A stretch of DNA of 64,000 nucleotides, from positions 207,989 to 271,988 of the forward strand of contig CAVXTM010000010.1 in NCBI GenBank assembly GCA_963764725.1. Direction: 5' to 3'. Under the pieces are notes generated by a model. That model worked only from the letters and a program-made list of their open reading frames with translations. It was not told the origin of the DNA and ran no database searches. The stretch is from an uncultured Gammaproteobacteria bacterium. Its GTDB lineage: Bacteria > Pseudomonadota > Gammaproteobacteria > JACCXJ01. Numbering within the stretch: the first letter of the stretch is position 1; each line of letters starts with the position of its first letter. Position numbers and translations under genes: made by a program. This document shows positions 40,536-43,700 of this stretch, in pieces.

Positions 40536-41123
40536 AATCGGGAGGAGTCCATATATGGGCTGAGGCACGAAGCCCATCAATCGCGACCGATGGGCTTCGT
40601 TCTTGCTCAGCCCATCCTACCAAGACGTTCAAACCCTTCGAAGAATGGGAGATTCCACGCGAGGTCGATGCCAAATGGCCGGACGCAGCCAAGAAGCTCC
40701 ATGCCCAATGGTGGGAACAACGCATCGCCCGCCAGCGTGAGATCGATGCGTCGATCGCCGCCAAGGCCGAGTTCGAATACCTCTACGACAAGCCCTACGA
40801 CAACAAGAAGATAGTTCGCGTGGCCGGGCCGTTCACCGTCGAGAGCCTTTCCCCGCACCGCATGCTCGGCGTGGACGAGAACGACGAATTGATTGATCGC
40901 GTCGCCGAACCCGGCGCTGACTACAGCGCCAAGCAGTCTTTTCCCCAGATGATCCTGGAAAACCTCAAAACCGCCGGCGTCCAGCAAGCACATAAGGAAG
41001 ACAAAATCACCTTCACCGCGCTTACGCCGTGGCCCGGCGATCTGGTCTGCGCCGAAGGCCGGTATGTCGAAACGCACCCCTCACCCCAACCCTTGTATGT
41101 TCTATTTTGTAGAAATTAATGAA

Positions 41124-42169
41124 ACGGGCTATCCACTTAACGCAAGTCACCGCTATATGTTGGGGTCCGGGCTGTTGACGATTTGGCGGTAAGACACTGG
41201 CGGCGTCGCCACGGCCTGTTGCATCAGGCGGTAGAAGAGAAGCCCGCGGGAGCGAGAGGTGCGCCGGTTGAAGCGAAACGTGTATTCGTCGAGGTAGTAG
41301 TCGAGGTACCTGCCACTTACCGCGCCTTGGTGAGTTCCGAGCAGCCAGCGTTTGAGCAGAGAGGCGATGCGGTGGACACCGGGCATCAGGACATGGGCCG
41401 GGTCTCCGCTGTCGGAGAGATTCGTCTTGATGCGCGTATATCCAGACTTCGTCATGTCGTTGTACCCGCCCCAGGCGTCGGTGAGAACTTCCGAACCGGG
41501 CTCAATGCTCTCGCGCACGAAAGGGACGAGATTGGCGCCGGAGGCGTCGGCCACACGTCTCATGCGCACGCGTCCAAATCCCTTCGGTTCGTGTAGTTCG
41601 ACGGCGATGACCACAATCTCCTTTCGTTCTGCTCCACGGCCACGCTTACCGCCTTTTTCGCTGCCTCCTACGAGCGTCTCGTCCACTTCAACGCGACCAT
41701 GAAGCCGCTCGCGCCCAGCTCGCACCATCGCGCGTCGCAGCTTATGCAACCAGGTCCATGCCGTTTGATAGCTTCCCAACCCCAGAACCCGCTTCAGGCC
41801 GAGAGCGTTGGCTCCATGCTTCTGACTCGTCACAAACCATATCGCCGCCAACCATGTCTTCAACGGGATACGCGTTCGCTCGAACATCGTACCTGCCGTG
41901 ACCGAGATCTCTGCACCGCAATCCCGACAATGCAGGTAACCTCGTCCCGTGATCCAGGGCGCACCGCTGGACCCACAGCGTGGACAGTGGTAACCCGCTG
42001 GCCAGCGAAGGCCCGCAAGATACTCGCGACAGCCCGCATCGTCCTCGAAAAAATCATTGAACTCGCCGAATGTCCGAGGGTAGTCGGACCCGCCGACTGG
42101 CCCTTCCCCTGTCCCCATGGGTAGCAAACACTAGATGTTGTGGTGACTTGCGTCAAGTGGATAGCCCGT
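41124..42169 (-). mobile_element. IS1595-family insertion sequence
   Basis: 28-bp TIRs ACGGGCTATCCACTT(A/G)ACGCAAGTCACC with one mismatch; 8-bp TSD TTAATGAA (41116-41123 and 42170-42177). Confidence 0.95.
41153..42127 (-). CDS. IS1595-family transposase
   Basis: Zn ribbon CPRC...CRDC, VEVDET, VLTD, YLDEYTFRFNRR. Confidence 0.95.
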   Translation of the reverse strand: MLPMGTGEGPVGGSDYPRTFGEFNDFFEDDAGCREYLAGLRWPAGYHCPRCGSSGAPWITGRGYLHCRDCGAEISVTAGTMFERTRIPLKTWLAAIWFVTSQKHGANALGLKRVLGLGSYQTAWTWLHKLRRAMVRAGRERLHGRVEVDETLVGGSEKGGKRGRGAERKEIVVIAVELHEPKGFGRVRMRRVADASGANLVPFVRESIEPGSEVLTDAWGGYNDMTKSGYTRIKTNLSDSGDPAHVLMPGVHRIASLLKRWLLGTHQGAVSGRYLDYYLDEYTFRFNRRTSRSRGLLFYRLMQQAVATPPVSYRQIVNSPDPNI

Positions 42170-42187
42170 TTAATGAAAATGTATTTC

Positions 42188-42358
42188 GGACTGTGGGGGC
42201 TGGTGGGCATCAATCCACAGACCTTTGGTTGCGGTGCGGCAGCTCGTCCAGCCCTTGGGACATCAAGCCCGTGGGAGAGCAAAGAGCGTCGCGCCGTTTT
42301 CTCACCGACAACCCGAACGGTTGCTGGGGCCTGTAAGCCCGTATTTTTGCAAGGAGGG
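42188..42358 (+). ncRNA. Predicted bridge RNA of the IS621-like element
   Basis: 5' hairpin CTGTGG/CCACAG; target loop guides TCCAGCCCT (42247-42255) and GGGAGAG (42273-42279); donor loop guides ACGGTTGCT (42317-42325) and TGCAAG (42348-42353). All four match the actual junction sequences. Confidence 0.85.
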
Positions 42359-42360
42359 GT

Positions 42361-43308
42361 ATGAGCGAGAACACTGTAGAGAAGTTTGTTGGCATTGATG
42401 TGTCCAAAGGCACGTTGGATATTGGTATTGAACCCACTGGAGAAGCCCTGCGTGTCGTTTATGACGACAAGGGCATCGCTCAACTCGTCAAGCGTCTGGT
42501 GGCCGTTGGACCGACGTTGATCGTTATGGAAGCCACAGGCGGCCTGGAAGTGCGGCTGGCCAGTGAACTGGCGGCGAAAGGATTGCCCCTCGCCGTCATC
42601 AATCCCCGTCAAGCGCGCGATTTCGCCAAGGCGACGGGAGAATTGGCGAAGACCGACTCGGTTGACGCCGCCGTCCTGGCGGCCTTCGCCCGCGCCATCC
42701 GGCCTGCGGTGCGACCTATCAAGGACGCGGACACCCGTGAGCTTGATGAACTCCTGACGCGGCGCCGTCAATTGATCGAGATACGCGTTCAAGAAACACT
42801 CCGTTTAGGCACGGCCTCGAAACTGCCACGCAAAAGCTTAGTGGCGCACATCGCTTGGCTGGATAAGCGCATTGCTGATCTCGACGTTGATTTGACCAAA
42901 CGCTTGCGCGCCTCCGAGGCCTGGCGGGCTAAGGATGATCTGCTGCAAGGCATTCCTGGTATCGGCGCCGTCACCAGCTTGACGATGCTGGCTAAGTGCC
43001 CGGAACTCGGCAGCTTGAATCGCCGCGAGATCGCAGCTTTGGTGGGCGTGGCGCCGCTGGCGAACGACAGCGGAAAACACCGGGGTAAGCGCTTCATCTG
43101 GGGCGGCAGGGCCGATGTCAGAGCCGTTCTGTATATGGCGACCGTTACCGCCATCCGGTGCAACTCTGTCCTCAAGGCCTTCGCTGAGAGACTCAAACAG
43201 GCGGGGAAACCAGCCAAAGTGGTGATCGTCGCCTGTATGCGGAAACTGCTGACCATTATGAATGCCATGTTGAAAAATAATGCCCCTTGGCAGCTGCAAA
43301 ACACTTGA
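42361..43308 (+). CDS. IS110-family DEDD bridge recombinase
   Basis: VGIDVSK, VMEATGG, KTDSVDA, catalytic Ser motif [33 protein letters not shown]. Confidence 0.96.
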
Positions 43309-43700
43309 CTTTGAACACGGTTGCTCTCCCGCAAGGGGCGAGGGAGAAAAGCGGAGCGCCGCCCAAGGCTTGGAACCCTCTCCACCCAGTGGGGGGAGAG
43401 GGGAGGGTGAGGGGGGCGGAGTAGAAAAACGCGCCGCCATCTTCATCGGTCCGGAATTCGGTACCGTCACCCGCCCCGATCTGGTGGCCGCCGCGCGTGA
43501 GGCCGGCGATGCCGACTTTGACGTGCTGATCGCCTGCGCCTTCAACTACGAGGCACACGCGACCGAGTTTAGCAAGCTCGGCCGTATCCCCGTGCTCAAG
43601 GCGCGCATGAACGCCGACCTCCACATGGCCGAAGACCTCAAGAACACCGGCAAAGGCAATCTGTTCGTGATCTTCGGTGAACCGGATGTGGAAGTGGCTA

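Follow-up and report, generated by a model that had tools for sequence, protein, structure and literature searches.

An IS110-group insertion sequence with a predicted bridge RNA of the IS621 type in REP-like palindromes of an uncultured gammaproteobacterium

A 64,000-nucleotide stretch of contig CAVXTM010000010.1 from an uncultured Gammaproteobacteria bacterium (called the window, whose positions are used throughout) contains at 41094-43325, on the forward strand, a 2232-bp insertion sequence (IS) of the IS110 family, IS110 group. Two open reading frames (ORFs), 41153-42127 and 42361-43308, are separated by about 180 nt of non-coding DNA, and the predicted bridge RNA lies at 42188-42360 (+), 5' of the recombinase gene. 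A preliminary description had taken 41085-43332 as a single IS621-like element. An IS110 element is indeed present in this span, but the description had missed a 1046-bp IS of the IS1595 family nested within it. The features are as follows, REP standing for repetitive extragenic palindromic sequence.

41085-41093 (+): left target half, consisting of the left target (LT) CCCAACC at 41085-41091 and the core CT at 41092-41093; part of a REP-like palindrome starting at about 41073
41094-43325 (+): IS110-family element, 1178 bp of its own plus 1054 bp from the nested IS and its duplication
41094-41123 (+): first 30 nt of the left end, with the right donor (RD) TGTAT, the -10 hexamer TATGTT (41096-41101) and the repeat arm TGTTC (41098-41102)
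41124-42169 (-): nested IS1595-family IS (PF12762, PF12760, NF033547), with 28-bp inverted repeats and an 8-bp duplication
42188-42223 (+): 5' stem-loop of the predicted bridge RNA (GGACTGTGG...CCACAGACC), variable among relatives
42223-42360 (+): region matched by covariance model R1 over all of its 137 positions (1-137)
42232-42296 (+): target-binding loop, with outer stem 42232-42245/42284-42296, left target guide (LTG) 42247-42255, inner stem 42257-42259/42268-42270, right target guide (RTG) 42273-42279 and handshake CA 42280-42281; the stem covaries, and guides covary with flanks
42312-42359 (+): donor-binding loop, with outer stem CCC 42312-42314/GGG 42357-42359, left donor guide (LDG) 42317-42325, inner stem 42327-42330/42337-42340, right donor guide (RDG) 42348-42353 and handshake G 42354
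42361-43308 (+): recombinase gene, 315 aa, with a DEDD RuvC-like domain and a Tnp domain; D13, E57, D99, D102, S237, G238
43305-43325 (+): right end, with the -35 hexamer TTGACT (43305-43310), the repeat arm GAACA (43313-43317), and the left donor (LD) ACGGTTG with the core CT (43317-43325)
43326-43346 (+): right target CTCCC (43326-43330), the 5' arm of the REP hairpin CTCCC-N11-GGGAG

The recombinase and the copies of the element

The 315-aa recombinase is intact, as had been proposed, and retains all five catalytic residues. It matched the Pfam families DEDD_Tnp_IS110 (4.9e-22) and Transposase_20 (8.3e-18) and the NCBIfam family NF033542 'IS110 family RNA-guided transposase' (203 bits for a cutoff of 140), and it aligned over its full length with the solved ISCro4 and IS621 proteins (E 1.7e-40 and 1.1e-34, respectively). 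In the alignment to chain 8wt6_A, the residues D13, E57, D99, D102, S237 and G238 stand opposite D11, E60, D102, D105, S241 and G242 of IS621, whose roles are described in excerpts of PMC11208158; this equivalence assumes, as we infer, that residue numbers in the deposited chain run +2 relative to those of the paper. The recombinase belongs to a very large protein family: of the 8,000 candidates scored, 7,999 reached E <= 1e-30, and all of the best 120 candidates listed are at least 80% identical. The closest public relatives are elements in metagenome-assembled genomes, with up to 83% identity over a near-full-length match in genome contigs, and metagenome proteins reach 95-99%. A relative was present in 10 of the 15 genomes of the order, a tally that includes genomes flagged as unpublished, on which nothing else in this account depends.

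Comparison of the copies gave a length of 1178 bp for the uninterrupted element (left end of 213 nt, ORF of 948 nt, right end of 17 nt), which starts with TGTATGTTCTATTTTGTAGAAATTAATGAAAATG and ends with GAACACGGTTGCT. When prefix and suffix were compared with an uninterrupted copy (L002), the 1054-bp excess of the window copy was accounted for by the 1046-bp nested IS and its 8-bp duplication. The long non-coding left end and the short right end are the layout of the IS110 group, opposite to that of the IS1111 group, a group criterion given in the legend of Extended Data Fig. 10 of PMC11208160 (as excerpted). The first letters of the element are TGTATG at 41094 and the last are ACGGTTG-CT at 43317-43325; its left-end start TGTATGTT is conserved among relatives. 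A sub-terminal inverted repeat, GAACA (43313-43317)/TGTTC (41098-41102), flanks the donor and is complete in the window (5/5). It scores 4-5 of 5 in 26 of 29 unique loci, one of the 29 having scored 0 for a technical reason, and its covariation is modest (cognate mean 4.03 versus non-cognate 3.47, a difference reached in 0 of 10,000 permutations).

Six copies of the element, with 99-100% identity, are present in the window's genome (19 contigs, 4.2 Mb), together with two partial or diverged matches. The intact ORF, encoding a 100% identical 315-aa protein, is found in four of the six copies including that of the window, and the gene is broken in the other two. Outside the nested insertion, the window copy is 100% identical to the intact copies.

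The target of the element is a REP-like palindrome, CCCAACC-CT-CTCCC, a 14-nt site, and both this target and the donor ACGGTTG-CT-TGTAT are present exactly as the preliminary description had quoted them. Five of the six copies sit in a REP-like palindrome CC[C/T][A/C][A/G]CC-CT / CT-CTCCC, with the left flank CCCTCACC-C[C/T][A/C][A/G]CC-CT and a right flank made of CT-CTCCC, a loop and GGGAG; the four copies with identical recombinase occupy different guide-matching sites. The genome also holds five unoccupied perfect CCCAACC-CT-CTCCC sites and 20 looser CCNNNCCCTCTCCC sites. The core CT is found at both junctions (41092-41093 and 43324-43325) and once in the empty site; as in IS621, occupation of the site thus goes with two CT copies instead of one. 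Public sequencing runs were compared as contigs only. DNA run X1, which may derive from the source sample, has a contig whose 30 letters beyond the right end are an exact match to the right half of a site on contig C15 (minus strand, around 148239); in this assembly that site is a perfect empty target. As contigs can mislead, this is taken as a hint of an insertion polymorphism at the C15 site. In run X2, the right end adjoins another CTCCC-loop-GGGAG hairpin, one that is absent from this genome.

Several copies depart from this pattern. L005 (G000, the window's genome, C18:73685-74808 region), one of the four copies with an intact gene, has a variant, hybrid left end: after its first 10 nt, TGTATGTTCT, the left end starts a second time in diverged form, and its 5' hairpin differs from that of the other copies. 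Three relatives (L067, L068 and L070) likewise repeat these 10 nt of the left-end start in tandem, and in L053 and L093 it is the right-end terminus that is tandemly repeated. These repeats suggest occasional insertion into, or recombination at, donor-like sequences. L006 (G000 C18:332586-333766) is a degenerate copy, 98.9% identical with 5 gap openings, whose recombinase frame is broken, two TAG stops lying inside the protein match. On its left, 196 bp are a 97% direct duplicate of 194 bp on its right, including a second tRNA-Val(GAC) gene, and an intact-looking empty target GCCCT-CTCCC is found upstream of the left duplicate. Such an arrangement could possibly result from a tandem duplication followed by excision, or from a half-match event.

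Bridge RNA, guides and junction promoter

The structure of the predicted bridge RNA was examined by comparison of relatives. A scan of one genome per species gave 79 loci with 50-86% identity (best segment). Those with 180 nt or more of upstream sequence were aligned, six short or poor rows were dropped and identical rows were collapsed, which left 54 distinct rows; eight further rows with long insertions or poor alignment were left out by eye (L060, L061, L066, L078, L087, L091, L104 and L115). The 46 remaining relatives and the window form alignment A2. In these 47 sequences, a hand-set structure of four helices and 23 pairs had 96.7% of its cells paired, versus 36-48% when the 3' partners were slid by 1-3 columns. 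A compensatory change was seen in 18 of the 23 pairs, and 0 of 500 shuffles reached any of the measures. RNAalifold proposed pairs between parts of the donor guides (columns 113-117 with 139-149); these lacked covariation and were rejected, and the hand-set structure was used. The inner stems (42257-42259/42268-42270 and 42327-42330/42337-42340) are flanked by the guide pairs, in agreement with the preliminary description.

The same description had suggested a covariance-model search as a check. The model R1, built from the 46 relatives, all from other genomes and with the window sequence excluded, gave 129.2 bits (E 6.1e-34) at 42223-42360, over its full length. It finds nine places in the genome, namely the six copies and diverged elements on contigs C2, C11 and C5. 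The loci C2:154601-154738 and C5:113509-113644 (111 and 78.5 bits, respectively) adjoin truncated recombinase genes, with first open frames of 77 and 58 aa, and their left flanks still match their own LTGs. Contigs from the RNA libraries X15 (2499-2649 of L002) and X16 (2513-2624), with 0 differences each, cover the bridge-RNA region; since DNA carry-over is possible and contig depth cannot rank regions, they are not evidence of expression.

The four guide segments are found at the places where they had been proposed, with the proposed matches. The LTG TCCAGCCCT (42247-42255) agrees with the left target in 7 of its 9 nucleotides, and the two that differ are U:G or G:T compatible with the bottom strand; the RTG GGGAGAG (42273-42279) is the exact complement of CTCTCCC (7/7). 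The LDG ACGGTTGCT (42317-42325) matches the left donor at 9 of 9 positions, and the RDG TGCAAG (42348-42353) pairs with CTTGTA with one G:T. The 3' side of the donor-binding loop overlaps the ribosome-binding site.

In the relatives, the ends of the elements were located by the conserved GTTGCT on the right and by CT followed by TGTAT or TATAT on the left, and the flanks were compared with the homologous guide columns. For the five variable nucleotides of the RTG, the cognate mean was 4.39/5 versus 1.42 for non-cognate pairs (33 unique pairs), and for the seven non-core nucleotides of the LTG, with the register left free within the loop, it was 4.85/7 versus 3.71 (34 unique pairs); neither value was reached in 10,000 permutations. 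Relatives inserted in unrelated targets carry matching guides (L118, L086, L052 and L059), as illustrated by L118 (RTG AAGTCGAG, flank CTCGACTT), L086 (RTG GAGCGGAG, flank CTCCGCTC) and L052 (RTG CATCGAAG, flank CTTCGATA). In the same genome, the element on contig C11, whose 321-aa protein is 58% identical, has different target guides (LTG TTGCGTCCT, RTG CCGCCGAG) that match its own different target (flanks TTGCATCCT and CTCGGCGC).

At position 3, the LDG and the LD carry the same base in 36 of 37 loci (A in 18, G in 16 and C in 2), the exception having T against A. The RDG base that faces RD4 pairs with it in all of 35 loci, once through a compensatory T:A, and GCAAG of the RDG is pairable with CTTGT in each of them. 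The G:T wobble noted in the window is the family norm (33 G:T, 2 A:T). The dinucleotide CA at 42280-42281, 3' of the RTG, complements the donor at positions 7 and 6 (G, T) and not the target, and the G at 42354, 3' of the RDG, is complementary to target position 7. The nucleotide of the target-binding loop and donor position 7 form C:G in 37 of 37 loci, and that of the donor-binding loop is paired with target position 7 in 35 of 35 (30 G:C, 3 G:T and 2 A:T). This complementarity fits the handshake guides described for IS621 (excerpts of PMC11208158).

The two hexamers of the promoter proposed for the circle are located at opposite ends of the element, TTGACT at 43305-43310, where it overlaps the stop codon TGA (43306-43308) of the recombinase gene, and TATGTT at 41096-41101. 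They are separated by a 17-nt spacer only when the right end is joined to the left end. Both are conserved in relatives, the -35 hexamer as TTGAC, and no sigma-70-like site was found in the linear sequence 41000-43400. A sigma-70 promoter is thus predicted to be rebuilt across the circle joint.

The nested insertion and the neighbouring genes

The IS nested within the left end (41124-42169, minus strand, 1046 bp) is bounded by 28-bp terminal inverted repeats and by an 8-bp target duplication, TTAATGAA, at 41116-41123 and 42170-42177, the size usual for the IS1595 family. Its 324-aa transposase ORF (41153-42127, minus strand) has an IS1595 DDE domain and an N-terminal zinc ribbon, and matched NF033547 with 204 bits for a cutoff of 75. 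The genome contains only one other IS1595 copy (L010), and the ends of the element are fixed by the fact that this second copy has its own, different 8-bp duplication, TTCTCTAA. A 1251-bp IS630-like element in turn splits L010 (G000 C18:86258-88563). It is flanked by TA, has TATAACGATTC as terminal repeats and contains an ORF of 128 aa and, in a second frame, one of 332 aa.

The insertion is at position 31 of the IS110 element, about 16 nt past the predicted start of transcription and 11 nt short of the 5' stem-loop. Transcription from the junction promoter would have to read through about 1 kb, antisense to the IS1595 transposase gene, before reaching the bridge RNA. Because the IS1595-family insertion lies between them, the bridge RNA of the window copy is probably uncoupled from the junction promoter, and we consider its expression in cis as probably impaired, a judgement that stands close to evens. 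The ends, the guides and the recombinase gene of this copy are untouched, and an identical bridge RNA could come from the sister copies. Since the window copy holds 1046 bp of foreign IS, the uninterrupted 1178-bp copy is the cleaner template, and it is this form, rather than the span 41085-43332, that should be used for cloning.

The IS110 element is located in a REP doublet (about 41073-41093 and 43326-43418) within an apparent DNA methyltransferase gene, which belongs to a restriction-modification locus (ResIII ORF 33635-34624 and N6_N4_Mtase fragment 37881-38369). The length of 2232 bp being a multiple of three, removal of the element would, in our reading, fuse ORF 40466-41119 in frame to 43280-44452 via the REP sequence. 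Another frame of this methyltransferase-like ORF 43280-44452 contains a 130-aa gene (43722-44114) whose product is a 23S rRNA-intervening-sequence protein, a four-helix bundle (PF05635, 1.5e-38). The methyltransferase-like gene is also interrupted by an IS1111-like element. At 39160-40562 of the window, a second, unrelated IS110-family element carries a 338-aa ORF (39259-40275; NF033542, 340 bits) whose product is 24% identical to the 315-aa recombinase. Its left end of 99 nt and its right end of 287 nt correspond to the IS1111-group layout. It has two full genomic copies (in the window and on contig C8) and one fragment, and R1 gives no match there.

Interpretation and comparison with known systems

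We consider it very probable that the element belongs to the IS110 group of insertion sequences and moves by recombination under the guidance of a bridge RNA. Its anatomy, the conserved covarying RNA structure, the covariation of guides with flanks and ends, the identical copies in matching targets and the conserved catalytic residues all agree with this reading. By homology with IS621, the element would excise as a circle in which the right end is joined to the left end, and the joint would create both the donor site ACGGTTG-CT-TGTAT and the sigma-70 promoter TTGACT-17-TATGTT, from which the left end would be transcribed into a bridge RNA of about 200 nt. The 315-aa DEDD/Ser recombinase would bind this RNA, whose donor-binding loop may pair with the two strands of the donor joint and whose target-binding loop may pair with CCCAACC-CT (bottom strand) and CT-CTCCC (top strand) of the REP-like palindrome. 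Strand exchange after the CT core would then insert the element and duplicate CT. RNA binding, circle formation and RNA dependence are thus attributed to this orthologue by analogy.

Several observations weigh against this interpretation. Rfam 15 gave no matching family on 38500-44500 (E up to 1), which is why our own covariance model was built. The single-sequence fold, no stabler than shuffles (z -0.08), is uninformative, and it is the comparison of relatives that supports the structure. The LTG match is limited to 7 of 9 positions by Watson-Crick pairing, and the LTG signal is weaker than that of the RTG because most targets are C-rich, which makes the baseline of 3.71/7 high. The relatives are kin, and the permutation counts overstate their independence. 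L006 is without the expected left target and CT, and 1054 bp separate the -10 hexamer from the bridge RNA in the window copy. Finally, the right-end/left-end circle joint was found in none of the contigs of four public runs; as contigs drop rare forms, this absence speaks neither for nor against a circular intermediate.

Could the protein instead recognise the REP hairpin, the left-end RNA being a leader or regulator of the recombinase gene and the guide matches a matter of shared descent? The targets of close relatives are mostly similar, REP-like and C-rich, which inflates the non-cognate LTG matches, and for ISPpu10 a stem-loop of the target has been reported to contribute further to specificity (excerpts of bioRxiv 10.64898/2026.03.19.712850). 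This explanation is nevertheless very improbable, since unrelated targets go with correspondingly different guides in L118, L086 and L052, the C11 element shows the guide-target correspondence within the same genome, and the RTG contrast between cognate and non-cognate pairs runs against it. A coincidental origin of the four matches in the window, conceivable for segments as short as 6-9 nt, is hardly credible at all. When 42181-42360 was shuffled 100,000 times by mononucleotides, the 9-mer of the left donor turned up in 72 shuffles and the target arrangement (the RTG 7-mer with an LT match of at least 7/9 located 5-45 nt upstream) in 74, but the two together in 0; moreover, homology to columns that covary among 46 relatives fixes where the guides lie.

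The question is more balanced for the window copy itself. The family may work as described while this copy is crippled and non-autonomous, without a guide RNA of its own, and hence immobile or mobile only with the RNA of a sister copy; we give this a little less than an even chance. In its favor, the nested IS separates the -10 hexamer (41096-41101) from the 5' stem-loop (42188), the negative result for sigma-70-like sites in the linear sequence extends to the outward end of the nested IS, and the composite was found once in the genome, the other IS1595 copy not lying within an IS110 element. Against it, this copy is identical to the intact ones outside the insertion, and both ends and the ORF are intact. 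The IS621 bridge RNA works when supplied in trans (excerpts of PMC11208160) and action in trans is reported for ISPpu10 (preprint cited above, in part), and a 1-kb read-through is possible, the single terminator-like hairpin found being within chance expectation. It is unlikely, though conceivable, that the window copy represents a natural first step of cargo gain, with the composite mobilised in trans and the REP hairpin beside the right target perhaps acting as a structural gate, as has been reported for ISPpu10. In that case a non-autonomous IS110 derivative, the 2.2-kb composite, would be mobilised in nature under trans guidance by sister-copy RNA; as the composite is present once in the genome, its status as a moved unit is unsupported.

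Under the reading preferred here, RNA-guided recombination, the element is an unremarkable, if very clean, representative of the already annotated IS110 bridge-recombinase family. Its novelty is modest, because in 2024 thousands of orthologues were predicted by such covariation logic (PMC11208160, as excerpted) and NCBIfam already names the protein RNA-guided. It adds a natural bridge-recombinase system with a 14-nt target, six insertions, five empty sites and a second orthologue with different guides; the insertions, the empty sites and the second orthologue form a convenient natural test set for mismatch tolerance. The recombinase could be screened as an editing enzyme, and it teaches nothing new on the mechanism.

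Among known systems, the nearest element in annotated plasmids to bear a name of the ISfinder type is ISMno7, of the IS110 family, with 49.5% identity across 96% of the protein; this is below the same-IS level and the name was rejected for the element. ISPpu10 of Pseudomonas putida belongs to the IS110 group, and all its insertions are in copies of one repeated stem-loop-forming sequence (same preprint, in part). The likeness is that the right target CTCCC is the 5' arm of the REP hairpin in five of the six sites of the window element; the ISPpu10 stem-loop is described in these excerpts as a 5' extension of the target, and the two are likened by description and not by sequence. The best match among solved structures is ISCro4/IS622 (structure 9t56, E 1.7e-40, residues 8-311), which shares the fold family and the catalytic motifs. 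It is a distant orthologue, whose activity in human cells (bioRxiv 10.1101/2025.05.14.653916, in part) says nothing about the window element.

IS621 of E. coli (excerpts of PMC11208160 and PMC11208158) and the window element have in common the domain order and all five catalytic residues, a long left end encoding a 5' hairpin, a target-binding and a donor-binding loop, the CT core, a promoter that would be rebuilt at the circle joint, the short sub-terminal inverted repeat, the handshake nucleotides and the insertion into a repeated palindromic sequence. The IS621-type bridge-RNA architecture proposed for the window is therefore supported, by family-wide covariation rather than by the window sequence alone. 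The recombinase is distant in sequence from that of IS621 (phmmer E 1.1e-34 over residues 9-311), and the target specificity differs, as had been anticipated: positions 6-7 are G,C in the target and A,T in the donor of IS621 (PMC11208158, as excerpted), versus C,C and T,G in the window element, whose RTG pairing covers five variable nucleotides and the core.

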